From a virus (taxonomy: Duplodnaviria; Caudoviricetes): 64,000 nucleotides of DNA. Below are positions 4,561-47,400 of the stretch, in pieces (the first letter of the stretch is position 1; every line of letters begins with the position of its first letter). Under the pieces are notes generated by a model that worked only from the letters and a program-made list of their open reading frames with translations, was not told the DNA's origin and searched no databases. A program made the translations under genes and the position numbers. The stretch lies in IMG/VR virus record IMGVR_UViG_3300037400_003286; one strand, given 5' to 3'.

Positions 4561-4603
4561 CTTGATAAAACCAAAATCATTTTAGTATTTATCTCGAAAA
4601 CGT

Positions 4604-26562: not shown

Positions 26563-29500
26563 ATGGAAAAAATGGAAAACAAAACACTCTCTATGGTCAC
26601 GATCGTACCGATTCGTGCCGCAATTGAGAAGCTTTCGCTTTCCGAGTCAAATTCCATAGCCATTCAGAATTTCTGTAAAGAATATAATGAGAAGCTTGAC
26701 AGCGGATTGCACGAGGAACAGATCTGTGAGCAATTTGTGATCGATCTTTCTAAGATTGCAGAATCCGAAACAGCAAAGGCTGTTCTGAATGACGTGAATG
26801 AGGCTGTGAAAGCTAACGAAGCTAACATTAAATTAGCAAACAATGTTTATAATCTTAGCAAAGGATCATGTATGTTCGTTGCTCCTATGATTGAATCAGC
26901 AGTTGTTGATTACATCATAGACAAGAATTCTACTACAAGAGACAATGTGAAGATTAATCTTTCGTTGTTTGAAAGTGACAGCACAGTTCAGAATATTCTT
27001 GAGACATTGCAATATGAGCAATACGAGGAGAAGAACGGAAAGACTCTCGTAAATGCAGAGTTGAAGGAAGCTTTCAAGACCCCTGAAGTAAAGACTTACA
27101 CACAGGAGGAAGTTGACAGAATCCTTAGCGACAAGGTTAATGAGATGGCAGAAGCTGAGAAGAATGTCGAGAAGAAGACAAAGAATATGATCAAGAGTCA
27201 TATCGGCCTCAGTGAAGCAATTACGGCGATTCTGAAAGAAAACAAGAATGAAAAACTTAAGGTATTCTGTGAGCAGTACATTGATGCTCTTAACTCTGGT
27301 AAGCCAGAGGAGCTTCTTTATGAGTCATTCATTTCTGGTATTTCTAATTGGAATTACCTGAGTGCTGTTGACACAGAGCTTTCAGCATTGAAGGACAGAG
27401 TTTCACAATATAAGCAGGACATTGATCTTAAGAAGATTCTTGAGACGATGGCTCAGACTGGTTCATATTATATTGTTCCATTGATCGAGGATGTTGTTGT
27501 TGATTATGTTGAGAACAAGAACATGGCTACACGCGCTATCCTGTTGCAGAGACTTGAAGCATTCGAGTATGATCCATTCGTGCGTGATATGGAGTGCTTG
27601 ATCACAAGAGACCTTTCAATCGAGAATACGGTTTATCTTGGTGAGTCTGTTGAGTATCTTAACAGCCAGGTTAAGACTGAACTTATTTTCTCTCCTGTTC
27701 AGTACATTAAGGAAAATGAGTGTGTATTCAATGTGAAGGGTGCTTACTACGCAAGAAAGGGTACTAACATTGCAAAGCTTACAAAGAATGAGGTTGCATC
27801 ATTAAGTGAGTCGTTCAAGTCACTTTGTAATCTTGTAAATTCAGATAATGTTAAATTCTCTCAGGAACTTAACTCTATCACAGTTTACGGTGGTGCTAAT
27901 ACTTGTGTTATCACTGAGTCAGAGATCACAGTAAATGGCAAGGAAGTTACTTCAGATGAATTGAAGAAACTTATGGAAACAGCTATCGCCATGAGAAGTG
28001 ATGATGCTGAGTTCTACGCTATGTCTGTCGCATTGAACGAACATTACAATGATATTGCTTATATTGATTTTGTTAAGAGAATCGAGGCAAGAGACAACAG
28101 TGGTAAGTCTTGTGATGTATTCAAGCTGAAGGAGAGTATTTTCGTTAATACTACAAATAGCAATCTTGGAAGATCTACTTTCTATCGTAATGTTAATCCT
28201 ATTCAGTGCCGTAAGTATATCAACGAGCATATGGAAATCAATTGCGGTCCTTTGTTCGAGGATGAGCTTCCAGAGCAGGAGAAAGTAGCAAAGGCTATTG
28301 ATGATAAGAAGAAAGAATATCAGGACTATATCGATTCACTTGAGGAGAAGAAAGAAACTCTCCAGGCTATGAAGGATGAGGGTGCTGATACAGATGATAT
28401 TGATAAGGCTATCGACATGATCGATAAGGAACTTGAGGATACAAAATCTGATTTCCTGAAATATCAGAAGGATGCTGACAAGTATCTGAATGGTGATGAG
28501 GATGATGCTGATGATTCTTTGAAGAATGAAGTTCCCGATACAGAGGATGATGATAAGGAAGGATCAGACGATGCTGAAAATAAGGATGGAGAAAACGGTG
28601 AGGACAACGATGATAGCAAAGTCGGTGACGAGCTTGATCCAGACAAGGAGTCGGCAGAGGACATGGAAAAGCCTATCGAGGGTGAACCAGGTGAAGATGC
28701 AGCAGAGACAGAATTCCCAACAGATGATGAGTTTGCTGATGTTGCTGAATATGATCCAGATTTCGATGTTCCTACTGAGGTTGTAAAGACAGAGACAGAA
28801 CAAGACCAGTCAACTGATATTGGCTACGGCAAGTTCCAGATCGTAAAGGTTTCTTACAACAGAAATGTAAAGACTGGTGCTGAGAACGGTCACGGTGAAG
28901 TTATCCTTGTGATTCCTTCAGTTGATGCTAATGGTGATGTACATGATGATATGAGAAAGGTTACTTTCTATCTTGATCAGGACAAGACACCTACCATCAA
29001 TAACGAGTACATGCCTCTTGATATGTACACACAGATTGTTGACGCAATCGTAAACGATCCTCAGACAGAATCAGTTTCGGTTGGTGATGTTAAATCCCCA
29101 GAAACAGATGAAACACTTCCTGCTGAATCAGTAGAGGAGCCAAAGGATGTAGAGAACATCAACGTTGAAGACGCTGTTGCTACTACAGAGCCAGAGGAAA
29201 AGTCTGAAGATGAAATAAAAATAGAAGATACAAAACCAGCAGAGATTCAGGAAACTCCAGCAGAAGTTCAGAAAGCTGATGCAGAAGAGGCTTCATATCC
29301 TATCACTGTAGGTTTGTATCCAGAAGAGATCGCTCCTATCGAGGTATCAGATTTCGAGAAGGATCTTGATGATAAGATGAAGATCGAGCATACTGAGAGT
29401 GAGGCAAATGACGGAGAAATCTGTTTGAAGATCGCTAATAAGGCTCAGGCACATGCTTTGAAGAAGTATTTCCATGAGTGGAAGGCTTACGATGACGATC

Positions 29501-31209
29501 AGTTCTGTTCATTCTTCCCAGAGTTACAGAAGTGCTTCGATAACAAGCCAGCAAATATCGATGTAATGCCAGCAAATGAAAGTGTTAAGATTACTGGAGT
29601 AAAAGCTATCAGCGAAAGCAAGAAAGAGCCTTTTCGTGTAATGCTTCCATGTAACGAGTCGCTTTGTGAATTGTTCGGTATTGAGAAGAAAGGAAACATG
29701 ATACAGTTCCAGGTTGTTCCTGAGAACAAGGATGAAGAGTATAAGATTTATGAGTCTCTTTACAACTATGCAAGAAAGAACAACGGTAACGTTGAACAGG
29801 ATGTTGTAGACTTCCTTGAGAAGTATGGTGACGAATATGGACACCTTTGTGAGAGCAACTACAGCTACAAGCTTAATGTTCCATATAACAACTTCCTTGC
29901 ACAGAAACTTACAGCCAACGGATTCGAGGTTAAGTCTGTTAACGAAAGCATGTCAACAGAAATCTTGAAGGAAGACTATAAGAAAGCAAAGAAGATTCTC
30001 GAATCATTCTATGGTGATGCTGCACCTGTTGAGGCAAGGGATTTTTTTCAATTCCTCAGTGAGAACGTCAGGATCACTGTAAAGGACGAAACGACTGGTA
30101 AGACCGTCGAGATTAATACTGACGACTTCAATGGTAAGAATGAAGGAACAGCAGATAACGGTGTAGCAGCCGATTTCGATGATTCATTCAAGAACGTTAC
30201 ATTTAACCCGCAAGACAGCCTTGCATTCAAGGATGATGAAGAATCAGCCGATGATGAGGATGAAGACAAGGATAAGAAGGATAAGAATGACAAAAACGTA
30301 AGCGATACTAATGAAGGAACTGAAGACGAAAAGTCTGAGAAAACTGAGGATGTCGAATCCAATAAAGAAAATTCCGAGGAAGAACATAACGAGGAAGAGT
30401 CTAAAGAGGATAATGGATCAGAGGATAAAAAGTCAGAAGACGAGAAGCCAAAGAAGAAGTTTAAATTCAAGGTTAAGAAGTCAAAGGCTGACGAATCGCT
30501 GAAACAGGATGAAAAAAATCATCTTAACGAATCAGATTTGAACATTGCGGAACCAAACGTTCTTGACTATGTTAAATGTAAAGACGGAAACAAAGGTCAG
30601 ATTATCTGCAAACAAGCTGATGGTGACTTTATTGTGAACGTCAATGGTCATACTAAGATATATCCAAAGTCTGATGTAGAATTGGTACATGCAAGATTCG
30701 ATCTTGTTGATACTCCATTCAAGTATGACGATGCTACTCTTAGGGGTGTTTACGAAAGCTATGTAAACTGCGGACTTTTTGTTAATAACACTCAGGTTAC
30801 TCCTAATGATTGCAAAGTTCAGCTTCTAGAATTCATGACAGCAAACGACGATGCAGAAATTAACCTAATTATCGAAGGAGAAAAGACAAAAGCACAGAAG
30901 AAGTATATTAGAATCACAGAAAGCCTTGATGAGCTGATCGATCTTGCAAATTATTCAAAGGGTACTATGACTTACATCGTTGAAGGTGTTGAGCAGAAGA
31001 CCGATGTGTTGATTAATACAAGAGATTATCAGACATACATGGTTATGAATGAGTCTACTATCCCTGTCAGAACTCTTATTTTCGATGAGAACGGTGAAAC
31101 TCATATGAGTAATATTCCTGGTGGAAATCTTATGATTTGTGAATCTGAGGATTACTTCAAGCCAGAAAGTGAAAGATTAATGGAGAGTGCTATTGCAGCA
31201 CTTTCCTAA
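26563..31209 (+). CDS. Large acidic prohead core/scaffold-like protein
   Basis: 1548 aa; more than 25 (I/L/V/M)-x-E motifs; internal duplication; acidic linkers; late promoter at 26514. Confidence 0.55.
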   Translation: MEKMENKTLSMVTIVPIRAAIEKLSLSESNSIAIQNFCKEYNEKLDSGLHEEQICEQFVIDLSKIAESETAKAVLNDVNEAVKANEANIKLANNVYNLSKGSCMFVAPMIESAVVDYIIDKNSTTRDNVKINLSLFESDSTVQNILETLQYEQYEEKNGKTLVNAELKEAFKTPEVKTYTQEEVDRILSDKVNEMAEAEKNVEKKTKNMIKSHIGLSEAITAILKENKNEKLKVFCEQYIDALNSGKPEELLYESFISGISNWNYLSAVDTELSALKDRVSQYKQDIDLKKILETMAQTGSYYIVPLIEDVVVDYVENKNMATRAILLQRLEAFEYDPFVRDMECLITRDLSIENTVYLGESVEYLNSQVKTELIFSPVQYIKENECVFNVKGAYYARKGTNIAKLTKNEVASLSESFKSLCNLVNSDNVKFSQELNSITVYGGANTCVITESEITVNGKEVTSDELKKLMETAIAMRSDDAEFYAMSVALNEHYNDIAYIDFVKRIEARDNSGKSCDVFKLKESIFVNTTNSNLGRSTFYRNVNPIQCRKYINEHMEINCGPLFEDELPEQEKVAKAIDDKKKEYQDYIDSLEEKKETLQAMKDEGADTDDIDKAIDMIDKELEDTKSDFLKYQKDADKYLNGDEDDADDSLKNEVPDTEDDDKEGSDDAENKDGENGEDNDDSKVGDELDPDKESAEDMEKPIEGEPGEDAAETEFPTDDEFADVAEYDPDFDVPTEVVKTETEQDQSTDIGYGKFQIVKVSYNRNVKTGAENGHGEVILVIPSVDANGDVHDDMRKVTFYLDQDKTPTINNEYMPLDMYTQIVDAIVNDPQTESVSVGDVKSPETDETLPAESVEEPKDVENINVEDAVATTEPEEKSEDEIKIEDTKPAEIQETPAEVQKADAEEASYPITVGLYPEEIAPIEVSDFEKDLDDKMKIEHTESEANDGEICLKIANKAQAHALKKYFHEWKAYDDDQFCSFFPELQKCFDNKPANIDVMPANESVKITGVKAISESKKEPFRVMLPCNESLCELFGIEKKGNMIQFQVVPENKDEEYKIYESLYNYARKNNGNVEQDVVDFLEKYGDEYGHLCESNYSYKLNVPYNNFLAQKLTANGFEVKSVNESMSTEILKEDYKKAKKILESFYGDAAPVEARDFFQFLSENVRITVKDETTGKTVEINTDDFNGKNEGTADNGVAADFDDSFKNVTFNPQDSLAFKDDEESADDEDEDKDKKDKNDKNVSDTNEGTEDEKSEKTEDVESNKENSEEEHNEEESKEDNGSEDKKSEDEKPKKKFKFKVKKSKADESLKQDEKNHLNESDLNIAEPNVLDYVKCKDGNKGQIICKQADGDFIVNVNGHTKIYPKSDVELVHARFDLVDTPFKYDDATLRGVYESYVNCGLFVNNTQVTPNDCKVQLLEFMTANDDAEINLIIEGEKTKAQKKYIRITESLDELIDLANYSKGTMTYIVEGVEQKTDVLINTRDYQTYMVMNESTIPVRTLIFDENGETHMSNIPGGNLMICESEDYFKPESERLMESAIAALS

Positions 31210-31772: not shown

Positions 31773-32219
31773 ATGTCTACAAAATTACAGGAAAAACTGA
31801 GATGTCAGAAACGTGGAGAGGAATTTGTTGACGAAACACTTAGCAGTATAGGAAGAACACCTGAATCACAGCATTATGTAAAGAACTCAGTATTGCTTGC
31901 TGAAATACTAAAATGTAAGAGAGAGAACAACGGACAGGCGAGCGATGAATTGGCTAAGATGTTTATACAGATTGCAACAAAGCTTTCAAATAAGCTTAAA
32001 TATACAAACGAGGAAGACAGAATAGATTGTATATATACAGCAGTAGGCGACTGCATAAGATATTTCAATGACTTTGATGAGAACGTAACACAGAACGCAT
32101 TCGCTTATATCACTTCAATATGCAGAAACGGATTTGCAAAAGGATGGAGAAATCTTGGATATATGAAACTTCCTCAAAGCATGCAGGTTTCTTTATCAGA
32201 TAATGTTTATTCGATTTAG
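31773..32219 (+). CDS. gp55: T4 gp55-like sigma factor for late transcription
   Basis: HYVKNSVLLAEI, ELAKMFIQIATKLS and NAFAYITSICRNGF match gp55 conserved blocks. Confidence 0.85.
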   Translation: MSTKLQEKLRCQKRGEEFVDETLSSIGRTPESQHYVKNSVLLAEILKCKRENNGQASDELAKMFIQIATKLSNKLKYTNEEDRIDCIYTAVGDCIRYFNDFDENVTQNAFAYITSICRNGFAKGWRNLGYMKLPQSMQVSLSDNVYSI

Positions 32220-33059: not shown

Positions 33060-33062
33060 AAA

Positions 33063-33092
33063 TAAAACGTCGCATAATCTGCGGCGTTTTAT
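33063..33092. terminator. Bidirectional terminator
   Basis: taaaacgtcgca-taatc-tgcggcgtttta. Confidence 0.7.
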
Positions 33093-33095
33093 ACT

Positions 33096-33236
33096 TTATA
33101 TTGTCGTTTTCTTACTTGGCTTCCTTATCGGAGATGTCCTTATAGACGTTATCTTGGTACTTTGAGTATCTTTGATCGTATAATCATATGATACAGTCTG
33201 TTGTTTTTTCTTAGGACATGTTGGACACGTTTTCAT
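33096..33236 (-). CDS. Small basic CxxC protein (46 aa; 53 aa if started at 33257), not in the ORF track
   Basis: MKTCPTCPKKKQQTVSYDYTIKDTQSTKITSIRTSPIRKPSKKTTI; AATAAATA at 33258-33265 (minus strand) upstream and a terminator downstream. Confidence 0.55.
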   Translation of the reverse strand: MKTCPTCPKKKQQTVSYDYTIKDTQSTKITSIRTSPIRKPSKKTTI

Positions 33237-33318
33237 TTTATCGACTATTTCTTTCATTATTTATTTGTTCAAGCCTTTTCTTTTTAGATAAATAATAAAA
33301 TGATTTTGCTTTATAGCA

Positions 33319-34140
33319 ATGAAGATTAATATTTATACAGACAAGAAACTACAAGAAGCTGATGAAATTCAGAACGGTGACGGTGAATCTAATGCAAGTC
33401 AGGAAACAAACGTTAATGCTGTAGATCAAAACCAGAACCAGGAACAGAATACAGACACAACCGAACTTTCACAGCAACTTGTTGCATTCGTTAACAGAAA
33501 GACTCAGTTAAAAACTCAATACGATGCCGACATTAAGGTGTTGAACGATCAGATTATACTTCTCCAGAAACAGAGAGGTGATTTGCAGGATGCTGATGTT
33601 CAGACAGATGAACAAGCACAGGCAAACAAAGCAAAGTTAATACAGACAAATATCGCTCTTAATGATCTTGCCAACAAAAAGCTTGTGAAAAAGACAGCTT
33701 ATCAGCAGAATGTAAAGAATATTGAACAACAGATGATTCTTATCAACAAGACTATCGCTGAGAATGGTGGTGATGTTGATGTCAAATGTGTTGATGAGTC
33801 TTTGAAAGCAAAGATCAGATTCAGTAAGAAACTCTATGAGGCTGTACTTAACAGAACAGATGAGATGTATGCTGAAATCTGCATAGCGTTTGACAATATA
33901 GATAATCTGTCATATCGCCCAGATAATACTAAATGCAGAACATTTGCAAAGAACATCATAGCTTATCTTAACAAGCTTGGATGGGAATCTGGAGGTCATG
34001 AAGACGAATTCAAGACTTTCCTTTTCAATATACTGAATGCAAGTCATATTTCACTTGCACAATCAGAGAAAGAGAAATTCGTAAATAATCTGATAGGTCT
34101 AATGAAAGAAAATACACTTTTCATGTGGCTGTTCCAATAA
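33319..34140 (+). CDS. Coiled-coil late protein, first gene of the MoxR operon
   Basis: GATAAATA at 33287; LQEA, VDES and LYEA motifs; Q/N-rich coiled coil. Confidence 0.6.
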   Translation: MKINIYTDKKLQEADEIQNGDGESNASQETNVNAVDQNQNQEQNTDTTELSQQLVAFVNRKTQLKTQYDADIKVLNDQIILLQKQRGDLQDADVQTDEQAQANKAKLIQTNIALNDLANKKLVKKTAYQQNVKNIEQQMILINKTIAENGGDVDVKCVDESLKAKIRFSKKLYEAVLNRTDEMYAEICIAFDNIDNLSYRPDNTKCRTFAKNIIAYLNKLGWESGGHEDEFKTFLFNILNASHISLAQSEKEKFVNNLIGLMKENTLFMWLFQ

Positions 34141-34172
34141 TAAGACAATCAAAAATATTTTAATATATTAAA

Positions 34173-36191
34173 ATGGCAAAATATAAATTAAGAAATAGCA
34201 ATAACGTTGTTAACTGTGAGATTCTGAATGAATCCGCAAACGATTATATTGTTCGTTTTAACAATGGCGTTATTCAGAATGTTCCTAAGGACAGAGTAAG
34301 TCAGCTTGATAATATTGATGAAGGTGTTCTTGACACTGTTAGAGGTGCTGCTGAGACTGTAAACAAGTATGGTCGCAAGTTTGCATCAAAGGTTAAGGAT
34401 ATTGCAAATAAGGTAAAGGAATTCTTGGTTAAGGCTTTCGTTGCTGACGGATTCGTTATTTTCAAGGGAACAGAAAACAAGTATCTTGAGGCAAGCCATC
34501 CAGTTAATGCTATGGAAGGTGCTAAGACTACAAATTGTGTAAACTATGTTCCTGGATCCGATACAGTAGAACTTTGTAACGAACTTGGTATTACACCAGA
34601 AGCTGTAGAGAACTATGAGTTTGAAGGTGAATATGAAGGTGCTATTGATTTCAGTGGTGCAACAAATGAGTCTGTAAAAGGATCAACTAGTCTTCTCAAG
34701 ACTTTGTTCGAGGCTGAGGATACACATCTTAGCAAGAGCGAAAAGATTAGCTTGAAGGGCACTTTCTGTGACTGGTCACAAGAACAGATTGTAAATTATA
34801 TGGCAAACGAATATATGAGTCGTTATGAAGGAAGAAAGCCAAATTCACTTCCTCTTCTGATCTGGGGTGCTCCTGGTATCGGTAAGACTTCTATTATTCG
34901 TTCACTGAAGGAGGTTGTTAAGAACGAAACAGGAAAGGAAATCAATATTATTTCAATCAACGGTGGTAACGTTGGTCCAGATGATTTCACAATGCCTGCA
35001 TCAATTGTAAAGACTATCACATCAAATGATATTGAGGATGTTGACAATGATGACTTCAAGGGTGCAACTCAGACTGTAATCAAGGATCTTCCTAAGACAT
35101 GGCTTCCTGTGTATAATCCACAGAGTGAAGAGGCTGATCCAGCACTTCTTAATGCTATTGCAAACGGTGGTGGTTTAGTTAAGGATGAGAATGGAAACGA
35201 TGTTATCGAAAACGGTCCTGGAGGAATCTTCTTCATCGATGAGTATTCACGTATGACACAGGCTGGTATGGATGCTCTTATGCAGACTCCTACTACTCGT
35301 GAAATAGGTTCTAACTCTACATTAAGATTCGGTGACAGATGGGTTATTATCTGTGCAGCTAACCGTAAGTCTGATATGAGCCGTAGAGGTGGCTCTGAGG
35401 CATTATCGTTTGAGGGTGCATCAAAGACACGTTTCAATCACTGTAATTTTGTTCCAGATCCAAAGGAATGGCTTGATTGGGCAAAGAAGGATTCATCACG
35501 TCGTCCAGGAAGAAAGAACGTTCTTACTGACATTGTAAGCTACATCGAAAGCGAACTCAAGAGAGATCCTAAGGAATTCGGTGATTTCTATGAAATGTGG
35601 TCACATCCAACAGGAGAACTTAACGGTGAGAAGGGTACAGCTAACCCACGTACATGGGAGGCATTAAGTGAGACTTTGATCGATCAGTGCCTTGAGAACA
35701 GATTCGGTAAGAGGTATCCTTCAATTTCGTCTATGCCAAAGGCTGCTCTTGCACATATCGCTTCTGGTATCGTCGGTGGTGACGTTGCTAAGAGATTTGC
35801 AACATTCGTTGCTCAGTTCTCTTTGTTCACTCCAGCCGATGCAGAGAATGTATGGACAAAGGGTGATAATGCTAAATATGAAATCATAAAGCAGCAGAAG
35901 CTTAATTCTTCTAACATTGAGGAATATTTCACTAATCATATCTTCCCACTTCTAAAGGATTGTTATCCTGGTGGACTTGAGAATGGTGTTGCTCCTGATG
36001 CTGCACTTCACTTCATGCAGTTCCTTGAGGCTTGCTGTTATGATGGAGGACAGTTTAATTTGAACAGATTTAAGACTATCAGCACAATGTTTGGATTTGA
36101 ATTTAATGTTGATCTTAAATCACTTCATGGTCCATATGCTGATGCAGCAAATTATAAAGAAGAAGTTATAGCTAAAAACGAATTAGTTTAA
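34173..36191 (+). CDS. MoxR-family AAA+ ATPase with a ~190 aa N-terminal extension
   Basis: IWGAPGIGKTS, FFIDEYSR, ICAANR, KTRFNH, NPRTWE. Confidence 0.85.
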   Translation: MAKYKLRNSNNVVNCEILNESANDYIVRFNNGVIQNVPKDRVSQLDNIDEGVLDTVRGAAETVNKYGRKFASKVKDIANKVKEFLVKAFVADGFVIFKGTENKYLEASHPVNAMEGAKTTNCVNYVPGSDTVELCNELGITPEAVENYEFEGEYEGAIDFSGATNESVKGSTSLLKTLFEAEDTHLSKSEKISLKGTFCDWSQEQIVNYMANEYMSRYEGRKPNSLPLLIWGAPGIGKTSIIRSLKEVVKNETGKEINIISINGGNVGPDDFTMPASIVKTITSNDIEDVDNDDFKGATQTVIKDLPKTWLPVYNPQSEEADPALLNAIANGGGLVKDENGNDVIENGPGGIFFIDEYSRMTQAGMDALMQTPTTREIGSNSTLRFGDRWVIICAANRKSDMSRRGGSEALSFEGASKTRFNHCNFVPDPKEWLDWAKKDSSRRPGRKNVLTDIVSYIESELKRDPKEFGDFYEMWSHPTGELNGEKGTANPRTWEALSETLIDQCLENRFGKRYPSISSMPKAALAHIASGIVGGDVAKRFATFVAQFSLFTPADAENVWTKGDNAKYEIIKQQKLNSSNIEEYFTNHIFPLLKDCYPGGLENGVAPDAALHFMQFLEACCYDGGQFNLNRFKTISTMFGFEFNVDLKSLHGPYADAANYKEEVIAKNELV

Positions 36192-36196
36192 TCACT

Positions 36197-36904
36197 ATGT
36201 ATGTGATCAAATATACAGATACACCTATAGAGACTTCCAGGCTGTTTGAATCACAGTCTGGAAATCCTATTTGGATCAAGAAAGATGGTACAGCCGTTGA
36301 CATGGATACTGTTGTTATGGTTGTTGAAGCTGTAATGCAGGACTTGGCACAGTATTTCCCAAGTGTTGAACGTATCATGAAGCATAAGGATATTATATAT
36401 ACTGATAATCCTTATGTTCCTACTATGGCTACTGACGGTGTTTCTATCTTTATTAACCCAGCTTTTGCTGAACAGCTTATCAATATGGATGAGGACAAAG
36501 GCCCACTCTATGTTGAATTTGTTCTTATTCACGAAGCACTTCATATTCTGTTTGATCACTGTAACAAACACATGGCAAATCTTGATAAATATTCGGATGC
36601 TGAAATAGTAAACATGGCACAGGATTATGAAATCAATTATACTATTGAGAATTTCATGAGACAAGGACCAGGAACAGCACCATTTAAGGGTATCACTAAT
36701 GAGCTTGGTGGATGTTATAGTGATGAATTCGGAAAGAAAGGTCTTACTTGGGAAGAGATATACGACAAAGTACCAAGACAGAAGAGAACAAAGGTTCTTG
36801 AAAAGACATCAGATGAATGGAAGAAAGGTTTTGCTGATGGATATGCAGAAGTTATGGCTAAATTAAGAAAAGAAAGTCTTGTTGAAAAATGCGTTACGAT
36901 GTAA
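36197..36904 (+). CDS. Zincin metallopeptidase (DUF2201 N-terminal type)
   Basis: PTMATDG, LIHEALH (HExxH), NMAQDYEIN. Confidence 0.8.
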   Translation: MYVIKYTDTPIETSRLFESQSGNPIWIKKDGTAVDMDTVVMVVEAVMQDLAQYFPSVERIMKHKDIIYTDNPYVPTMATDGVSIFINPAFAEQLINMDEDKGPLYVEFVLIHEALHILFDHCNKHMANLDKYSDAEIVNMAQDYEINYTIENFMRQGPGTAPFKGITNELGGCYSDEFGKKGLTWEEIYDKVPRQKRTKVLEKTSDEWKKGFADGYAEVMAKLRKESLVEKCVTM

Positions 36905-39900
36905 AGAAAGAAATCAACCAGGTTATACAGGATAAGACATTATCCAAGCAAGAGAAAATCCAGAAGATTAAGGATATTTACAATTCCGCAAATTCTGGTG
37001 GTGTGACTGGTGCTGATACAAAAGATGCTGGTGGTGCTGGTAATTCTGCCTCTGGTGGAAATAGTGGCAACGGACAAAATGATGATCAGAATCAGAATGG
37101 TCAGGGACAAGGCCAGGGACAGAATCAAGGTAACGGTAATGGTCAGCAAGGTCAGAACGGTCAGGGACAAAACGGTCAAGGTCAAGGACAGAATAATAAC
37201 GGACAACAGCAAGGCCAGAATGGTCAAGGACAGGGACAGAATGGACAGAACAATAACAATGGTGTCCATAATGTAAGCCATAATCAGTTGAAGAATCAGG
37301 GTGTTGGTCAGAATGGTCAACAGAATGGTAATCAGCAAAACGGAAACGGATCACAAGGAAATCATGGTAATCAGTCTGGTCAGCAAGGTCAGAATGGTTC
37401 AAATGGTGGACAAAATGGTCAGCAAGGTAATCAATCTGGCAATCAAGGATCAAACGGTGGTTCTCAAAGCGGACAGCAAGGAAACCAGTCTGGTAATCAA
37501 CAGAATGGCGGAGGATCTCAAGGATCTCAAGGTAATCAGCAAAACGGACAAGGTGGTTCACAGTCTCAAGGTCAGCAAGGTGGACAGCAGGGACAGTCTG
37601 GTAATCAGAATGGTCAAGGCGGTGGTTCACAAGGACAGCAGGGACAAGGAAGCCAACAGCAAGGTCAAGGACAAGGTAATTCACAAAACCAGAATCAAAA
37701 CGGTCAGCAAGGACAGCAGAACCAACAGCAACAAGGTTCACAAGGAAATGCTTCACAGCTTGATGAATATTCTATAGGATATATTCTTGGTAAGAAATAT
37801 GCCGAGGAAATGTACAAGCATAGAGGTCTTGCGCCTGTTATGAGAGACCAGGTTGAGCTTCCAGATAATCTTGATCCTATGAAGATTCTCGAATCATTGA
37901 ATGAATCTATCGATGATGATATTGCAGCTTTGCTCGATGATACAAGTATAGATGATGATGAAAGAACAAGCAAGATTCATGATCTGTTCAGAGATACAAT
38001 AAAAGGTGGCGGAAGCAAACAACAGGAACCAGAAGAGAAAGAAATCTATGTTCCAGATGATGTTATTGTCATGAGAAACGGAACAGTAGATCCTGACAAT
38101 CTTCTTAGTGGTGCTCACGTTATTGATGAAAAAATAGGTGATGAAATCCGTAAGGAGATGGGAGTTACTCCGAAGGATCCAGATTGGGGTATGAGTGATG
38201 ATGAGGATGCTATGATTAAAGAAGCATTCCCTATCATTGGTGATATTTTCAAACATGCTCCACAGGATGACAAGGAACTTGTGTCTGCTGCTGAAACAAT
38301 GAAGAATAAAATTGAAGGTCGTATCAGAAAGAGTCGTGAAGGTATTATTGACTGGAAGAAAGCACTCCAGGACTTTATTTCTGAGAGATCTCATACATAT
38401 GAGAAAGGCCCACTCCGTAAGAATGTATATCAGAGAACTGGTATAGGTCTTAGACATAGAGTAAAGGCTTTCAACGATTTTAACAAGTGTGTTGTATATA
38501 TAGATACATCTGGTTCTGTAAACAACGACATGACACAGCTTATTCCTATTATGACTGGTGAAGTTGGAAAAATCATGCAGGACTGTCATTTCAATACGGT
38601 TGATATTCATCTGTTTGATGATGTTGTATATAATGAACACTTTGATGTAGATTCATATACCGTACAGGATGAAAACTGGGGTATTGAAGGTGCTGATGAC
38701 GGTGGTGGTACAAACATCCATGAAGTTTACAAACATATCATCAAGAACTATATGAATGATGGTGAGCTTAATTATGATATTAATGCTATCATTATCATCA
38801 CTGACGTTTCTGGTATGCAGTATTCTGGAAATGTTAAACCATTCGCTGCTAAATTAGGTCAGCATACACTTGAGAGAATGCTTTACGTAATCTATAACGA
38901 TTATGCTAATATGTATCTCAAGGAAGTTACAGCAGAAATGGATCAACTTGTTTCAAAGTATTCACAACACTATGAAATTTCAGTAGAAGCATTTAGAAAA
39001 CAAATATTAAGTGAATCAATGAATATTAACCAAAAGAGAATGAATATGAACGAGGCTCTTGGAGGTTTGAAGAAGATTCAGCAAAAGCAACAGCAAGCTC
39101 AGATCGATCCATCTGAAAGAACAGAAGATGAAAAGAATGAGCGTCTGAGAAAAGCCGAAATTCAGGGTGCTCGTGCTGTCGGTCAGCTTGAGAAGGTTCT
39201 TCCTGAACTTGTTGCTAATCTGGAAAAGTTCTTCCCTAACTGTCGTATGGTAAAGGAATATACAGCTGTAATGGCTACTCCTAATACATATTATGTTACA
39301 GAGGAAGCTCATGTTATTCTTCATATGGATGTTGATGGATCTAACATCAATAATCTCTGCGAAGCTTGTTCCGTAATGACTATCGATCAGCTTATCGGTA
39401 ATGTAACACTGAAGAATGCCAGAACATTCAGAGGATTCCCCGTTGGATTCCCTAAGGAAATAAGTGGTGATTTGGTGATGTTTAATCTTGTCAATTTGGG
39501 CGGATTTGACAATGCTCCACAGGCAGTTACTGGACGTGTTTCAATCAATGTATGTTATCCAATGAACAAACGTATATCAAAGGATGCTCAGAATAAATAT
39601 GTTACATCATTGATGAAGACTCTTACACCAATAGGTGAACTCGAAAATAAACCAAAACATGTATTTACAATGACTAAGAGAAATAACGAAAGTGTAGCTA
39701 ATATCATTAAGAACAGAATAGCTCTAAGTGAGTCATTTATTAATGAAATGGCTATGCCTAAGAAACTTAGTCCTGTTTTCCCAAGACGTTCAAAACCTCA
39801 AGCTGGAAGCAAGGTTTCCGAAGATGATTATATAGCATCAACTGAACTATACAAGAAGAATAGAAATGTATTCTTCGATGTGATTGATCCTCTTCTTAAC

Positions 39901-42036
39901 ATTGGTTGGGGTGATATTAGTGATGATGATGTTACCGTAATCAATGATGTTAGCCAGATTAGAATTGCAGCTAAGGATTCTAAGTATTTTGAGAAGAATA
40001 AGGACAACGCAAATCAGCTTGGATATGCTGGTGTAAGAATTTTCACCACATCAGATAATATTATTAGTGCAGTTTATGCACAATCTAAGAAGGGTGCTAA
40101 ACCAACTATGGTTTATCTAAATGATGATAACGGTGATGCTATCACAGATCCTGAAAAGATTAAGGGCGAAGTTGATAAGCGTTACGATATTTTCAAGCAG
40201 ACATATGATTATCTGAAGAATGTCGGCGTTGAGCCAGGAAACCTTCCAGAGAAATTCTCAGTAATGCCAGGAAAGGGACAAAATGCTACAGTTGAAGCTG
40301 CTGCTCTTCACGTTCTTTATTACCTGATGGCTATGCTTAATGGTACGTCTGGTGCTATTGACTATAAGTTCAAGGTTGATTCTATTGTTGCGGATCAATT
40401 TAAGGATGGTGCTTCTGACAATCAAGAAATATTCGACAGAATTCTCAATTACATTTATCCTAATGCACAGATGGGTAATGACGGAGTTTCTGCAAGAGTT
40501 TATACATCAAGAGGACGTTTGACCGTGAACTTCAACCAGAAGGAAAAGAACCAACCAAACAGCAAGGTTAATTTCAACATGGCATATTTCAATTCTGATA
40601 TCGGTCATAATGTATTTGAATGCTTCTCTGATAATTTCTTGAAAGCTCTTCTTATCGGATCTTCATTAAGAGGTGTTGATAATGAGCCAAGATATAGTGT
40701 AGATGAGATTATTGATGCTGATAGAGATACACTTCTTGAAATGGTAAATCAGGTTAAGAATGTTGAACTTATCAAGACATCTTTGAAGTCACTTTCATTC
40801 AAGGGTAAGAACATGGATGATAAGTACGATCACTCTAATCCATTCGATGTTCTTATGATGTTCCCTGACAAGTGTGAGAAGGAATATGATATCCGTGTTG
40901 ATGTTAATGATGAGGCTCTTAAACTTGTTGGTAAGAAGGTAACTCGTGATATATACAAGTCTGGTATGTATAACGACATCAAGAACTACAAGTACAATCG
41001 TGAGACTGGAGAAAGAGAGCGTGCTGACATTGAAGGCACAGCATCATTAAAGAAGAAAAAGGAAAATCAGCAATTATCTGATGAGTTTACTTCTTTCGAC
41101 TCTGTTGTTAATTATATTGTTGATAACAAAGATATATTTACAGACGCAAAACAGGCTATAGAAAATGCTATTGCAGAATATACTGCAAACCATAGCTGGT
41201 ATTCTAACAAGGAGCTTCCTGTTAAATTTAGTCAAAGTGTTGACAAAATTGTTGATTTCTCTAATCTTATTAAATCTAAGATTATCAACGATCCAGAAAT
41301 TTCTAAGAATAAGGCATCAGTTATTGATCTTATGGTTGAATCAATGGGTGAAGTAATAGGACTTATAGAGAAAATTATGATGCCAGAAGAGGGTGAGGAT
41401 TATAAGACTATTATTGATAACGGTGAAAAGCTTGTTAAAGAAACAATGAGACTTTCTGAGCTTTATGCTAACCTTACTGGAGAATCTGGTGATTGGGTTA
41501 ATGCACAAGGTAAGAAGGTAAGCTACCAGGATGTTGTATCAAAGAAGGTTAATAAGCTTGGTGAGAGAAACCGCAGCAAGAAAGCAGCTACATCAACTAC
41601 TCAGGATACTGGTGATTCAGCTAAGGAAGAGCAGATTAAGGCTAAATATGCACAGGTTATCAACGATTTGTCTGGCGACATCGTTAAGGTAAACGATGCG
41701 GTTAAGAATATTGACTTTGCTGGTGCTTCTGAGGATGCAGTGGATCATTTCTCAACTAAGGAAGACATGATGAGACGTATTGCTAATCAGCTTAACAAAG
41801 TTATTGAGATTGCTAACACAATCAATACAAACGGTTCTGTTGACTGGATGAATACAACACTTCCTCTGTTGAACGATGTATTCTATACTTGCAGTTCTGT
41901 AATCAATGCAAACAATGAGGAGAATATGACAGACTTCCTTGTTGACCTGGATGGTGCTTGCCGTGCTGTTACAAAGGCTGTTAGAGGTTTCGCTACGCAA
42001 CAGACTTACAAACAGGCTGGTGCAGTTACAGCATAA
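36889..42036 (+). CDS. Large vWA-domain protein with a Q/G/N-rich linker and long C-terminal extension
   Basis: IDWKKAL, VYIDTSGSV (MIDAS DxSxS), GGGTN, IIITD. Confidence 0.8.
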   Translation: MRYDVKKEINQVIQDKTLSKQEKIQKIKDIYNSANSGGVTGADTKDAGGAGNSASGGNSGNGQNDDQNQNGQGQGQGQNQGNGNGQQGQNGQGQNGQGQGQNNNGQQQGQNGQGQGQNGQNNNNGVHNVSHNQLKNQGVGQNGQQNGNQQNGNGSQGNHGNQSGQQGQNGSNGGQNGQQGNQSGNQGSNGGSQSGQQGNQSGNQQNGGGSQGSQGNQQNGQGGSQSQGQQGGQQGQSGNQNGQGGGSQGQQGQGSQQQGQGQGNSQNQNQNGQQGQQNQQQQGSQGNASQLDEYSIGYILGKKYAEEMYKHRGLAPVMRDQVELPDNLDPMKILESLNESIDDDIAALLDDTSIDDDERTSKIHDLFRDTIKGGGSKQQEPEEKEIYVPDDVIVMRNGTVDPDNLLSGAHVIDEKIGDEIRKEMGVTPKDPDWGMSDDEDAMIKEAFPIIGDIFKHAPQDDKELVSAAETMKNKIEGRIRKSREGIIDWKKALQDFISERSHTYEKGPLRKNVYQRTGIGLRHRVKAFNDFNKCVVYIDTSGSVNNDMTQLIPIMTGEVGKIMQDCHFNTVDIHLFDDVVYNEHFDVDSYTVQDENWGIEGADDGGGTNIHEVYKHIIKNYMNDGELNYDINAIIIITDVSGMQYSGNVKPFAAKLGQHTLERMLYVIYNDYANMYLKEVTAEMDQLVSKYSQHYEISVEAFRKQILSESMNINQKRMNMNEALGGLKKIQQKQQQAQIDPSERTEDEKNERLRKAEIQGARAVGQLEKVLPELVANLEKFFPNCRMVKEYTAVMATPNTYYVTEEAHVILHMDVDGSNINNLCEACSVMTIDQLIGNVTLKNARTFRGFPVGFPKEISGDLVMFNLVNLGGFDNAPQAVTGRVSINVCYPMNKRISKDAQNKYVTSLMKTLTPIGELENKPKHVFTMTKRNNESVANIIKNRIALSESFINEMAMPKKLSPVFPRRSKPQAGSKVSEDDYIASTELYKKNRNVFFDVIDPLLNIGWGDISDDDVTVINDVSQIRIAAKDSKYFEKNKDNANQLGYAGVRIFTTSDNIISAVYAQSKKGAKPTMVYLNDDNGDAITDPEKIKGEVDKRYDIFKQTYDYLKNVGVEPGNLPEKFSVMPGKGQNATVEAAALHVLYYLMAMLNGTSGAIDYKFKVDSIVADQFKDGASDNQEIFDRILNYIYPNAQMGNDGVSARVYTSRGRLTVNFNQKEKNQPNSKVNFNMAYFNSDIGHNVFECFSDNFLKALLIGSSLRGVDNEPRYSVDEIIDADRDTLLEMVNQVKNVELIKTSLKSLSFKGKNMDDKYDHSNPFDVLMMFPDKCEKEYDIRVDVNDEALKLVGKKVTRDIYKSGMYNDIKNYKYNRETGERERADIEGTASLKKKKENQQLSDEFTSFDSVVNYIVDNKDIFTDAKQAIENAIAEYTANHSWYSNKELPVKFSQSVDKIVDFSNLIKSKIINDPEISKNKASVIDLMVESMGEVIGLIEKIMMPEEGEDYKTIIDNGEKLVKETMRLSELYANLTGESGDWVNAQGKKVSYQDVVSKKVNKLGERNRSKKAATSTTQDTGDSAKEEQIKAKYAQVINDLSGDIVKVNDAVKNIDFAGASEDAVDHFSTKEDMMRRIANQLNKVIEIANTINTNGSVDWMNTTLPLLNDVFYTCSSVINANNEENMTDFLVDLDGACRAVTKAVRGFATQQTYKQAGAVTA
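36991..37758 (+). repeat. Low-complexity coding repeat (GQN/GQQ/GNQ units, ~255 aa)
   Basis: Almost exclusively Q, G, N and S codons; degenerate ggtcag/caagg/aatgg repeats. Confidence 0.9.
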
Positions 42037-42056
42037 TATTACAAACAATATATCAG

Positions 42057-42088
42057 AAGAGAGAATCGAATGGTTCTCTCTTTTTTAT
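42057..42088 (+). terminator. Terminator of the MoxR operon
   Basis: agagagaatc-gaat-ggttctctct followed by a T run. Confidence 0.7.
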
Positions 42089-42137: not shown

Positions 42138-43640
42138 ATGATTATAAAACCTACATATACAACAGAATCAATAGAAGAACAGCATATTGAGGATTTCGAT
42201 CAGATTATACTTGAAAGTCTTGTATCAAGATATGGTTCCGATATTGTATTCCAGTCTATAAACGAATCTCATTCCTATTATGGATCTGGCGGAAGGTTTG
42301 ACCGTACAGGAGGATCCAGGGTAAGCGGTGTAAGTGGATTGCTTCAGTCTTTACCAAGTCTAGCTATAACGACACTTATATGTTGGCCAGCAGTTCTTCT
42401 TGCTGGTCTTGGTGCAATATCACACAGAATGAGAGAAAAATATGAAGACAAGAATTCATGGCTTAACAGATTGAACCCAAGATTCTGGGTTGATTATCTT
42501 GCTACTCCACATAAGAGTAAGTCATCATCTTCATCATCTGGTAAGGAAAAAGAAGGATGGTTCAAGAGATTATCCAAAACCGTTCTTGGTGGTGCTGCTG
42601 GAGCAGGAGCTGTTGCTGGAGCAGCAGCGTTAGCAAAGAATTCAAGTACAGCAGATTCAAGCATAGATCCAGAAGAAGCAAAGAATATAGCAATGAATGC
42701 TATCTTTGTACCATACTGGGTTACTCTTTCAAATGGTGAGATATTGAGGGTAAGAGCAGATTCTGAGGAAAATGCAAAAACTATGGCTAATATGATTATA
42801 GCATATACAACAAAACCATGCTATAATAAATTGAATGAAAAGATCGCACAAGGTTGTCCTAAATACAAGTTCTATTTTGATGACGGTGAAATGTGCTATT
42901 GGTCAGCACCTACACAAAAGCAGGCTTATAATGAGGCTCTTGATACAAGAAAGGAACTTTGTAAGACAATGAATGAAGTAATGTCTTCATCTGTTGCACT
43001 TGATAATCTTGATGAGCCGAAAGTTGATGGAAAGGTTGAAGTAATCAGAGGAGAAAAGATAGAAGTTCCACAACAGAACAGATTCCTTAATGTTACTACA
43101 GTACAGCCTCAACGTCCAGAGGAACAGACTTTGAAACCTCTCCCGAAACCAATGTATAAGTATGGAAGTTTTTCACCATATAAGGTGACATATGCAAATT
43201 TCATGCTGAATATCCCAGGGTATCAGGAAGGTGAAGCAATGGAAATAGCTAAGGATTTCAATTCAAGGACAGCAAGAGATACAATCAGGGATATATATTA
43301 CAAGATGGATAAGCATTACGATCTTTATAAGGTTGCAATGAAAGATGGTGACATCTATGTAATACCAGGAAAAGGAATCAATGAAGTGAGTAAGGTTGCT
43401 GTTGATTTGTATAATGCAAAGGTTGAATCGATAAAATCAGTATTACAGGATTCAGCACTTGAGGAATATGAAGACTTTCTTACAGATTTCGGAGAAAGAA
43501 TAAATTCCGTAAGAGATGTCAAGTTGATCGATCCAGCAGAAGGAAAAGATTATACAATAAAGAAAGGTGATGAAGCGTCTCTTGTAAAGATAACAGATAA
43601 GGAAGAAAAGAATAAGAGATATCCTAATTTCAAACTATAA
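42138..43640 (+). CDS. Late protein with ILES/INES leader and hydrophobic segments (candidate ejected membrane-active protein)
   Basis: GATAAATA at 42106; DQIILESLVSRYGSD leader; hydrophobic AITTLICWPAVLLAGLGA; Gly/Ala stretch. Confidence 0.55.
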   Translation: MIIKPTYTTESIEEQHIEDFDQIILESLVSRYGSDIVFQSINESHSYYGSGGRFDRTGGSRVSGVSGLLQSLPSLAITTLICWPAVLLAGLGAISHRMREKYEDKNSWLNRLNPRFWVDYLATPHKSKSSSSSSGKEKEGWFKRLSKTVLGGAAGAGAVAGAAALAKNSSTADSSIDPEEAKNIAMNAIFVPYWVTLSNGEILRVRADSEENAKTMANMIIAYTTKPCYNKLNEKIAQGCPKYKFYFDDGEMCYWSAPTQKQAYNEALDTRKELCKTMNEVMSSSVALDNLDEPKVDGKVEVIRGEKIEVPQQNRFLNVTTVQPQRPEEQTLKPLPKPMYKYGSFSPYKVTYANFMLNIPGYQEGEAMEIAKDFNSRTARDTIRDIYYKMDKHYDLYKVAMKDGDIYVIPGKGINEVSKVAVDLYNAKVESIKSVLQDSALEEYEDFLTDFGERINSVRDVKLIDPAEGKDYTIKKGDEASLVKITDKEEKNKRYPNFKL

Positions 43641-44422: not shown

Positions 44423-47400
44423 ATGCGAGTAATCAAACGAAACGAATCGGAACAGGATTTTTGCCTCGATAAAATCGAGAAAGCCATAAGAAAGGCGAAT
44501 GATACGGTTAGTAAAGAGGACCAGATGAATGATGAAGCTGTACAGAAGGTCATCGCAACCGTTCAGAAGAAGCTAACGGGATTTAATTCCGTAAAGGTTG
44601 AAGATATTCAGGATTTCGTTGAACAGGCTCTTGTAAGGCATAACAAATATGCTGTAGCCAAATCCTATATCTTATACAGAGACAGTAAAAAGAAGAATAA
44701 GAAGTTTACAGAAAACGAAGAAAAGATTATTGCATTAATTGACGGAACGTCTTCTTTAAGAGGAGATAATGCAAACAAACATATTGACGACAACGCTTCA
44801 ATTAGAGATTATATTGCTGGAATCATGTGTAAGTCTCTTGCAAACAAGATTCTTCCTAAAGAAATTATAAAAGCACACAACGATGGTGTAATTCATTGGC
44901 ATGATGCGGATTACAGTCCAACCCAACCACTTCACAACTGTGACATCTATGATCTGGAGAACATGTTCAAATATGGATTCGTAATGGGTGATACACTTAT
45001 TGAACCAAACGATGAAACTCCATTTAGAACAATGGTTAATCTGGCTGCACAAATTGCATTATTGATTTCAGGGCGACAATATGGCGGACAGACTATGAGC
45101 TGGATTCATCTTGTACCTTATATTGATCAATCAAGAAAGATTATTCGCAAAAAAGTTATAGAAGATTTCAAAGAAGCTGGAATCGAATTGAACGATGATA
45201 AGATCGATCAAATTACAGAAAGAAAAGTTCGTGAAGAGATAGCAGAAGGAGTTAAGATCTATCAGTATCAGATTTTATGTCACTCTTCAGCTAACGGACA
45301 AACACCTTTTGTATCGAACAATCTCTGTCTTAGAGAAGCACAGACACAGCGTGAACTTGATGATTTTGCAATCCTTATTGAAGAAATCCTAAAACGCCGT
45401 ACAAAGGGAGTTAAGGATCCGTCTGGACACTATATCAGCCCATTATTTCCTAAGCTATTGTACTGGACTTGTGATGGCTTAAATGTGAAGAAAGGTGATC
45501 CATACTATTACCTTACTGAACTTGCAGCTAAATGTATTTCAAAACGTATGCAGCCAGATATTGTATCTGAACCTCAGACACGTAAACATAAACAAGGTCA
45601 GATTATTCCATGTATGGGATGTGTAGACAAAGATGATATTGTCACATACAAATATAAAGATTCTATTTATACTGAGTCTATAAAGAGAATGTGGGATCGT
45701 TTCTCATCTGAATTTGAAATTAAATTACAAGAAGCAACAGACTGTTACTATATTGATCTTGTAGGAGTTTGTATATATGATAGCAAATCTAATGGTTTTG
45801 TTGACTGTTTAAGAATAAACAAAAATGCAGATCAAGGAGATTGGAAACTTGTAAAATTATCAAATGGACGTTCATTAACATGTACATCAGATCATCCGCT
45901 TGCTGTAATAGGTAAAGGAAGAACAGAAGTAAAGGATCTGTGTATAGATGATGAAATAGAAGCAACAGATTTTGCTTATTCTGCTGAAACCGAAAACATT
46001 GATCCAGAATATGCATGGATGCTTGCAACTATTATGTGTGATGGTTGTTACGAAAGACAATTGTCATCCACATTTGCTATGAATGGAGAGGATGATATTA
46101 TTGACAGATATTCTAAAGCTGTTGAGAAATATTTAGGTCTTGGTACATTCGTAAAAGAATGGCATCGTGGTATTAAGGGTGATTATAAAGAAGTCAGAGC
46201 AACAAGCGGAAAATGTACAATAAAAGAAACGCAAGCGAAACTTTATGAAATATTTGGAGGAATGAGAAAGAAAGACAGATCTATACCTTCATTTATAATT
46301 CATGCTAATAGAGACGCTCGTGTTGCATTTATGGCTGGTATCATCGATGCTGATGGTTATATTCATAAGTCAGAGAAACATTTCAATAATATTGAGGTTG
46401 GTTCTACAAATAAAGAACTTGCTATCCAAACAATGTATCTTGCTAATACTTTAGGTTATGATGCTAAGATGTTATTAAATCATTATACATCATCAGATTC
46501 AAGTAAAATAAGATATAGAATCTATTTTAATACAAATGATGAGATCGTTAATTCTATAACATGCCAGAAGAAAAAGGACAATTACGAGACATTAAATAGA
46601 ATTAATCCACGAGATAAACATTATATTGTTACCGATATTATCGATCTTGGATATAGAGATGAGTATTCTTATGATGTGACAACAGGAAGCGACAGATTTG
46701 ATGTTAGCGGAATTCAATCGCATAATTGTAGATCTCTTCTTGGTCCTATCTGGGAGGAAAGAACATATCCAATCGATACTAAATTCTTCTGGACGGAAGG
46801 TGGTACATATCCTTATGAAAAGTTCATGGATGAAAGAACATTCGAATCTCTTCCAAACGGTGAATACAAGACAGGATATGATGAAGGTCAATACTGTATT
46901 AATTTCAGAGGAAACACTGGATGGCTTATCAAGAAGACCGATACTGAAGTTGTTGTTAAACAGCCTATGGTTTATGGTAGATGGAATAATGGTGTAATCA
47001 CTATCAATCTTCCGTATGTTGCCCTTGAGTCAAGAGAGAAGGGTGTTGACTTCTATGAGAATCTGGATCAATGGCTTGAACTTTGCAGAAAGGCAATGCA
47101 GGAGCGTGTTAAGTCTTGCAGAAAAATCAAGGCAAAGAATTCTCCAATCCTTTGGATGTACGGTGCATTGGCAAGACTTGAACCAGAACAGACTGTTGGT
47201 GATTTGATGGATGCTCATCCTACACGTCCTACTGTAAGTCTCGGTTACGTTGGCTTGTATGAAACGGTGATGGCTCTGATTGGTGAGTCTAATACAACCG
47301 ATAACGGGCGTAAGTTGTCAAAGGAGATCATGAAGTATCTTAATGACAAGCTAGCTCAATGGAAGAAGGAGGATAATATTATGTATGCTATCTATGGTAC

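Follow-up and report, generated by a model that had tools for sequence, protein, structure and literature searches.

Positions 33287-42088 of a 64,000-nucleotide (nt) stretch of viral DNA (IMG/VR record IMGVR_UViG_3300037400_003286; hereafter the window) hold one transcription-like unit composed of a promoter-like box, four closely packed genes and a terminator. The four open reading frames (ORFs) encode a coiled-coil protein (ORF1), a MoxR-type AAA+ ATPase, a zincin metallopeptidase and a giant protein with a von Willebrand factor A (vWA) domain; they are separated by gaps of 32 and 5 nt, followed by a 16-nt overlap of genes 3 and 4 (Table 1). On its upstream side the unit is bounded by a further terminator, a hairpin plus T run at 33062-33092. 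Judged from its genes, the window comes from a large (jumbo) gut myophage that is T4-like but highly divergent, and the locus is best described as a new, elaborated and split variant of the MoxR-vWA-zincin module known from jumbo phages. The best overall explanation, to which we give a little less than an even chance, is a late, translationally coupled MoxR-vWA-zincin operon with prohead-protease sites in the linkers of its products.

Table 1. Features of the transcription-like unit, with positions in the window and residues of the encoded proteins.
Feature	Position	Strand	Residues	Basis or remark
GATAAATA promoter-like box (putative gp55-type late promoter)	33287..33294	+		32 nt 5' of first ATG
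ORF1 coiled-coil protein, 273 residues	33319..34140	+		ORF call
MoxR-type AAA+ ATPase, 672 residues	34173..36191	+		Pfam, PHROG, model
MoxR beta domain			1-45	LNES at 18-21; AlphaFold model
MoxR disordered linker			47-88	begins with IDEG 48-51; AlphaFold model
MoxR small domain			89-149	AlphaFold model
MoxR second disordered linker			150-182	TNES 163-166, LFEA 178-181; AlphaFold model
MoxR AAA+ module			190-672	AlphaFold model
DUF2201_N zincin peptidase, 235 residues	36197..36904	+		Pfam plus HEALH
vWA giant with metal-ion-dependent adhesion site (MIDAS), 1715 residues	36889..42036	+		overlaps peptidase gene by 16 nt, -1 frame relative to peptidase
Giant, conserved N-terminal helix			first 35	precedes low-complexity tract
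Giant, Q/G/N/S low-complexity tract	37024..37779	+	46-297	0 to ~650 residues in homologues
Giant, tandem ILES-LNES	37885..37908	+	333-340	low-confidence linker, ~35 residues after low-complexity tract
Giant, vWA domain	38371..38997	+	~495-703	complete MIDAS
Giant, LSES and MNEA	39004..39057	+	707; 720	low-confidence linker 704-744
Giant, domain D3	39121..39621	+	~745-911	alpha/beta in model, no fold assigned
Giant, NNES, LSES and INEM	39691..39750	+	935; 946; 951	low-confidence linker 912-952
Giant, domain D4 and helical C-terminal region	39751..42033	+	~955-1350; 1351-1715	D4 confidently folded, no family or fold assigned
Intrinsic terminator ending the unit	42055..42084	+		13-pair stem, then T run

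An earlier note on this DNA, made from the sequence alone, had described the products as a coiled-coil protein, a MoxR protein with an extension of ~190 residues, a peptidase and a vWA protein encoded between a promoter and a terminator, and both the layout and the identities are confirmed by the ORFs, the box and the terminator on the one hand and by profiles, folds and invariant catalytic motifs on the other. The ATPase matches PF00004 with 22.2 bits (cut-off 21.2) and phrog_1297; its PF07728 (AAA_5) score of 18.1 bits lies below the cut-off of 22, and distant homologues carry PF07728, with one carrying PF20030. The Walker A motif (GAPGIGKT), the Walker B residues D356-E357 and the residues N397, R398 and R420 do not vary among 23 sequences that share 27-95% identity. 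The AlphaFold model of the ATPase, with a mean predicted local distance difference test (pLDDT) score of 76, has its best target-normalised fold matches in NorQ (PDB 9qh8, 9qhd) and CbbQ (PDB 6l1q), with template-modelling (TM) scores of 0.5-0.58 at a probability of 1.0, followed at lower coverage by MCM and sigma-54 activators. A sequence search of the PDB returned only generic AAA+ proteins plus low-complexity and coiled-coil matches.

The peptidase belongs to DUF2201_N (PF13203; 35 bits, cut-off 23.2) and carries HEALH at residues 112-116 (36530-36544), with H112, E113, H116 and H121 invariant in three sequences. Phrog_1314 is divided between neighbouring genes, one half falling on the peptidase and the other on residues 465-641 of the giant, which the C-terminal half matches at 4.9e-12. 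The vWA domain of the giant possesses a complete MIDAS (D539-T-S541-G-S543, T608 and D639), all residues of which are invariant in homologues, and the model resembles vWA domains (VIA Z 11-12, Foldseek probability 1.0), the vWA domain of NorD being among the matches. Its PF09967 score of 16.7 bits is below the cut-off of 26.4, and relatives with a fused peptidase carry PF09967. The fold searches were made with a 1105-residue model of the giant (296-1400) and were dominated by the vWA domain, ahead of which an additional long disordered stretch (370-464) is predicted; for D4 and the tail (955-1715), ESM Atlas gave no usable match. ORF1 combines a Q/N-rich coiled-coil N-terminal half with a conserved C-terminal domain and has no family match in profile searches, and scans of the module against defence, anti-defence and NCBIfam libraries yielded no meaningful match.

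No cultured relative was found for the region by megablast against phages, or for the vWA giant by tblastn; the best cultured relatives of the ATPase, at ~25% identity, are Lak, BpSp and Staphylococcus jumbo phages. Metagenomic contigs, the longest of 320 kb, also carry homologues of the ATPase, of which one, at 88% identity, is filed under Sharpea azabuensis. For comparison we used L003, L005 (a 181-kb contig), P0119, in which peptidase and vWA are fused, and the IMG/VR genome G001 (364 kb, 94% complete), the last of which was brought in because the window lacks capsid genes. The four-gene arrangement recurs in L003 and in L005, where the MoxR protein is 38% identical and the flanking genes of the module are kept as well. 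In G001 the MoxR protein is 29% identical and the zincin and vWA parts form a fused protein of 1602 residues; also found in this genome are a capsid protein of the Gp23 type and a protease of the gp21 type (PF03420, E 1.8e-13). The pairing of MoxR and vWA genes is kept in L003, L005 and G001, the vWA gene here lying 700 nt downstream in the same operon. Since the longer relatives carry peptidase and vWA in a single chain of 1400-1600 residues, the window has the split form of a MoxR plus zincin-vWA pair. A programmed -1 frameshift joining peptidase and vWA was considered and rejected, as the overlap has no in-frame slippery heptamer, the peptidase end and the ATG-led start of the giant are both conserved, and the 16-nt overlap geometry recurs in L003 and L005; predicted translational coupling explains the overlap.

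All four products carry motifs of the form [LIVM]-x-E, each at the place listed in the earlier note, and the clustering at module junctions that it described is reproduced by the AlphaFold models, in which the clusters fall into low-confidence linkers. Conservation and linker position are stronger evidence than enrichment. Over 14 homologues of the giant with less than 62% identity, [LIVM]xE sites with Ser, Ala or Gly at P1' show a retention of 0.67 compared to 0.27 for the other sites (Mann-Whitney p=0.0013), and control splits of [LIVM]xD, [LIVM]xK and [LIVM]xN show no effect of P1' on retention. The Glu at P1 is conserved far more strongly than its flanks, and P2 is variable. The tandem ILES-LNES pattern is found in 13 of 18 homologues, with the P1 Glu at 79-86% versus 46% for the flanks, and always lies ~35 residues past the Q/G/N tract despite the tract ranging from 0 to ~650 residues. 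LSES 707 and MNEA 720 have a retention of 0.71 and 1.00, respectively; this pair behind the vWA domain reads VSES...INEA in P0119 at 22% identity, and the cluster ahead of D4 reads LVES...LNEA in both P0119 and G001.

The other proteins hold conserved sites as well. In MoxR, L18-x-E20 is invariant, I48-D-E50 is kept at ~93% and E180 at 87%, and LNES, IDEG and LFEA in the extension, all three of the type [LIVM]-x-E-[S/A/G], are kept in G001 at 29% identity. ORF1 has LQEA at residues 11-14 and VDES at 158-161 (33790-33801), the latter on the boundary between the coiled-coil and globular halves; both are kept in L003 and L005 at 54% identity, VDES is invariant in three sequences, and its position reads TNES in G001 (for ORF1 and the peptidase, conservation was followed in two or three sequences).

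With regard to structure, the low-confidence interdomain segments 296-341, 704-744 and 912-952 of the giant each hold one conserved site cluster, and six of its seven small-P1' sites fall where the pLDDT is less than 50, as it is for 26% of the model; LCEA 823 is placed inside a helix of D3. IDEG, TNES and LFEA of MoxR are likewise predicted to sit inside two disordered linkers. Moreover, fused relatives have L-[VI]-E-S exactly at the point where the peptidase ORF of this phage ends (C-terminus ...LVEKCVTM), as expected if the gene split happened at a proteolytic junction. These conserved Glu motifs in linkers suggest, without proving, cutting by a head-maturation protease.

The most conserved part of the MoxR protein is its N-terminus, residues 1-55 (34173-34337) being 85-89% identical where the AAA+ module is 38-57% identical. 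Such a pattern indicates that modules were exchanged or that contact with a partner imposes a strong constraint, and it recalls the conserved propeptides of SPN3US paralogues. A BLAST search found no second copy of the N-terminal region within the window. By eye, the MoxR N-domain resembles residues ~1340-1375 of a 1548-residue acidic protein encoded upstream, a likeness that was rejected as it had no BLAST support.

A connection between the motif and a prohead protease is provided by that acidic protein (26563-31209, plus strand) and by G001. The acidic protein has 20 copies of [LIVM]-x-E-S compared to 2.7 in shuffled sequences, a 7-fold excess, and 26 sites when Ala or Gly is allowed at P1'; both this excess and the majority of the sites persist in its homologues from L005 and G001, the latter 48% identical. 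The protein probably serves as a scaffold or core polyprotein that the prohead protease cuts. When the 343 ORFs of G001 are ranked by their excess of [LIVM]xE[SAG], the acidic giant comes first (21 versus 7.3), and the protease ORF and adjacent ORFs of the capsid operon are among the top twenty. The PF03420 protease ORF itself has four [LVM]-N-E-S motifs where 0.09 are expected, which suggests an autoprocessed protease-scaffold fusion. This ORF encodes 688 residues (G001:C1:350382-352448, corresponding to L181:10382-12448, minus strand), the Pfam domain being approximately one third as long. The prohead proteases of T4, phiKZ and SPN3US cut after Glu, in many cases repeatedly within one propeptide, and T4 Alt is cut at ITE-6 and LTE-619 (PMC5694885). 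Given the ranking in G001 and this documented cutting after Glu, [LIVM]-x-E followed by a small residue is a credible cleavage motif of this clade; the likeness to T4 gp21 sites that had been proposed, with a hydrophobic P3 and Glu at P1, holds.

The unit is headed by a GATAAATA box, of which the window contains 14 copies versus 7.1 expected. Ten of the 14 are intergenic, on the right strand and 22-52 nt before a start codon, most of them reading GATAAATAG; this excess and this oriented placement mark GATAAATA as a genuine promoter-like element. Units behind such a box are labelled late because it resembles the T4 late promoter and because the window has a gene for a gp55-like late sigma factor at 31773-32219. 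As the box also stands ahead of a helicase gene (6175, minus strand), late expression is something we infer.

A number of neighbouring features were recorded beside these results. Just after their GATAAATA boxes, the leaders of ORF1 (33295-33321) and of a ferritin-like gene at 4560 on the minus strand (4560-4585, minus) share AAAATGATTTTG, and each has an upstream ORF of 7-9 codons that overlaps the main start codon; the two genes may have a common translational leader. A 53-residue minus-strand ORF with a CPTCP motif lies at 33096-33257, between the upstream terminator and the promoter box. In L005, two extra genes (1051 and 149 residues; L005:5070-8693, plus strand) are inserted just upstream of ORF1, the longer product having repeated ...DSGKKASDFAT... 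blocks and a fibre-like look. Downstream of the unit, a protein of 500 residues (42138-43640, plus strand) has its own GATAAATA box and terminator, hydrophobic segments and a Gly/Ala-rich stretch. The motifs TTES, ILES and INES stand at its N-terminus and are retained in part by L005; its location after the module is conserved. Elsewhere the window has neck and baseplate genes and encodes SbcCD, helicases (DnaB-like and others), NrdG and the anaerobic ribonucleotide reductase NrdD (44423-47935, plus strand), the last of which is split by an intein that carries a LAGLIDADG homing-endonuclease domain.

Three known systems, together with the substrates of T4-type prohead proteases, resemble the module in different respects. 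A MoxR plus metallopeptidase-vWA pair is known in group 2.2 T4-like jumbo phages and a part in assembling the virion, with peptidolytic processing, has been proposed for it (Iyer, Anantharaman, Krishnan, Burroughs, Aravind 2021, PMC7824862). That pair shares with ours the MoxR AAA+ protein, the DUF2201_N zincin and the DUF2201 vWA domain, encoded by adjacent genes of a large T4-like myophage. In contrast, the zincin here is a separate gene of 235 residues overlapping the vWA gene by 16 nt, and the vWA protein of 1715 residues has a Q/G/N tract and ~1000 extra residues that form two folded domains and a helical tail. The MoxR protein of the window also differs in its conserved two-domain N-terminal extension of 190 residues, a coiled-coil gene comes first in the operon, conserved gp21-type motifs occupy the linkers, and sequence similarity of the module to cultured phages does not exceed ~25%.

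The bacterial pairs NorQ-NorD and CbbQ-CbbO provide the closest solved ATPase structures and are found among the vWA matches, NorQ having been solved with the vWA domain of NorD. They are likewise composed of a hexameric motor and a MIDAS adaptor that holds the client, but serve metal insertion or enzyme reactivation and have no peptidase, giant extensions or viral context. In Acidianus two-tailed virus (ATV), the MoxR protein p618 is a major virion component (PMC4124505). Together with the vWA protein p892 it forms a viral pair in virion morphogenesis, and as such is a precedent for a particle-borne MoxR protein; however, ATV, a spindle-shaped virus of archaea, grows its tails outside the cell and is without a zincin or prohead-protease processing, and the likeness is one of description. 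Compared to the substrates of gp21-type proteases (T4 gp22, gp67, gp68, internal proteins (IPs) and Alt, and the inner-body and ejection proteins of phiKZ and SPN3US), the module has the same hydrophobic P3 and Glu P1, several sites per linker or propeptide, and a conserved N-terminal segment with a diverging rest, and the protease is present in the relative G001. It differs from them in that cleavage is here a prediction from sequence, that a shared capsid-targeting leader was not found, and that the candidates are an enzyme machine instead of scaffold or internal proteins.

Beyond these observations we infer cleavage, residence in the prohead and a client, and picture the module as follows. 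The giant would be the MIDAS adaptor of the MoxR motor, the zincin, normally fused to the adaptor, being separate here, and the ORF1 product would be a partner protein of the machine. By analogy with NorQ-NorD, CbbQ-CbbO and ATV p618-p892, the MIDAS would hold an acidic residue of a client, most likely a component of head morphogenesis, which the MoxR hexamer would remodel with ATP and the zincin would trim. The most economical reading of the [LIVM]-x-E-[S/A/G] motifs in the linkers of the giant, the MoxR extension and ORF1 is that they would be prohead-protease sites; assembly of the four products into or onto the core of the prohead would be followed, at maturation, by cutting into modules that are released or cleared. 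That the module proteins are cut by the prohead protease, and hence reside in the prohead, we hold to be quite possible, yet not as probable as its opposite; the idea has fared better than the density statistic named in the earlier note would suggest. That note went on to propose about four modules for the giant and a set that would either remodel the head interior or be ejected into the host, steps that are more speculative. We are more tentative about the full scheme in which the machine is built into the prohead, a gp21-type protease cuts between the modules, the giant is polyprotein-like and an ancestral zincin-vWA gene was split at a cleavage site.

Several observations weigh against cleavage in the prohead. 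The evidence on protease and capsid comes from the relative G001, no gp21-type protease being found in the 64-kb window. The 3-mer carries no meaning alone: the earlier note had named a motif density no higher than in replication genes as grounds for refuting its idea, and this is what we found, [ILVM]-x-E occurring at 1.3-2.6 per 100 residues in the module compared to values of 1.8 (NrdD), 2.1 (DnaB-like helicase) and 3.0 (SbcC). The 4-mer [LIVM]xES is enriched in the giant (5 versus 1.3 in shuffles, p=0.002) and in the four module proteins together (8 versus 2.4), but this enrichment is marginal because the background of the window is raised too (24 in the rest of the window versus 16.7 expected), and ES dipeptides are preceded by the hydrophobic residue of the motif in 8 of 15 cases in the module and 24 of 71 elsewhere, which are not clearly apart. 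The giant of L005 has no overall excess of [LIVM]xES (2 versus 1.6). In G001, the fused vWA protein (8 versus 4.8 for [LIVM]xE[SAG]) and the MoxR protein rank 23 and 32 of 343, respectively, both in the top tenth and neither significant alone. Module sites are kept in G001 in five of 10 cases versus eight of 32 elsewhere in the window, a difference that is not significant, and one of the five is the catalytic HExxH. Conservation in homologues, which had been named as a check, is seen for the small-P1' sites of the giant and fails for LFES (16-19) of the peptidase, which is not conserved in the three sequences compared; the LSES/MNEA pair behind the vWA domain is lost in G001, and LNES 18-21 of MoxR is modelled in a hairpin of the folded beta domain and not in a linker. 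Furthermore, a neck/head-closure-like protein (phrog_679; 6314-7852, plus strand) has three [LIVM]-x-E-S motifs compared to 0.6 expected, which is either a sign of one more substrate of the protease or a caution that the motif lacks specificity for the head interior. A search of 1.84 billion representatives with residues 1-190 of MoxR gave 53 matches, every one of them to N-termini of MoxR-sized homologues or fragments, and since this region occurs only in MoxR homologues, it is no portable or shared capsid-targeting leader like the capsid-targeting sequence (CTS) of T4. Virion proteomics of distant cultured relatives is uninformative: the summary of 23 structural proteins of Bacillus phage BpSp names no AAA ATPase or metallopeptidase and a text search for the gene number was empty; in Staphylococcus phage DC4, an ATPase homologue encoded beside a metallopeptidase gene was represented by one virion peptide, alongside GroEL and UvsX, and was regarded as doubtful by its authors; and the RaK2 paper makes no mention of MoxR, vWA or metallopeptidase.

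Much of this would also fit an assembly chaperone that works in the cytoplasm and never enters the prohead, its motifs being uncleaved docking motifs or ordinary features of acidic, helix-prone linkers. Such a reading agrees with the 3-mer density equal to that of replication proteins, with an enrichment that is marginal here and absent in relatives, with the N-terminal matches that reveal no portable leader, with the absence of a homologue from the BpSp summary, and with several sites of the giant that are modelled as helix ends; the literature, too, reads the pair as chaperone and cochaperone for virion assembly (PMC7824862). Nevertheless, it does not account well for the selective retention of small-P1' sites at a variable P2, the coincidence of clusters with all three interdomain linkers, the site at the gene-fission point, or the same 4-mer marking the protease and head genes of G001, and we consider it rather unlikely, though a serious contender. 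Alternatively, the motif could be recognised by the module itself, with the MIDAS binding the motif Glu and the zincin cutting, the 1548-residue protein being the client and the linker sites serving as autoprocessing sites or autoinhibitory pseudo-substrates. The metal coordination of a MIDAS is completed by a carboxylate of the ligand, as in integrin I domains, Rea1/MDN1 and CbbO. Here the MIDAS and HExxH are both intact, and the motif-rich gene lies 2 kb upstream in a synteny kept in L005; Iyer et al. have also proposed that the fused peptidase processes structural proteins by peptidolysis (PMC7824862). However, cutting after Glu with Ile or Leu at P3 is documented for T4-type prohead serine proteases and not for zincins (PMC5694885), the strongest enrichment in G001 is in the protease ORF, which points to autoprocessing by that enzyme, and the acidic giant and the module are ~45 kb apart in that genome; we hold self-recognition to be improbable. 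MoxR-vWA modules are reportedly found in bacterial conflict systems as well, and the processed MoxR, vWA and zincin pieces could be imagined to stay in the head and be injected with the DNA, so as to remodel or degrade host targets such as defence proteins. Processed ejection proteins inside the head do occur in T4 (Alt, IPs), phiKZ and SPN3US (PMC5694885), and D3 and D4 could be effector domains. Yet no evidence of any kind speaks for retention in the head or ejection, defence and anti-defence families gave no match, an ATP-dependent hexameric motor would be odd cargo, and several sites per linker suggest clearance, not maturation of a stable product; we regard an ejected effector as very doubtful.

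MoxR-vWA pairs are widespread. If the proteins of this operon are substrates of the prohead protease, the module would be placed inside the assembling head, before DNA packaging. As an AAA+ chaperone located inside the capsid it would be the first known for a tailed phage, in parallel with the archaeal virus ATV, and it would offer a tangible example of a gene split at a site of proteolysis. Cleavage in the linkers would also define a motif, [LIVM]-x-E-S/A with x often being Asn, for a large clade of uncultured gut jumbo phages, which could be used for predicting the head-internal proteomes of the clade. If the motifs are uncleaved, the locus would still stand out as a known kind of chaperone pair in unusually elaborate form.

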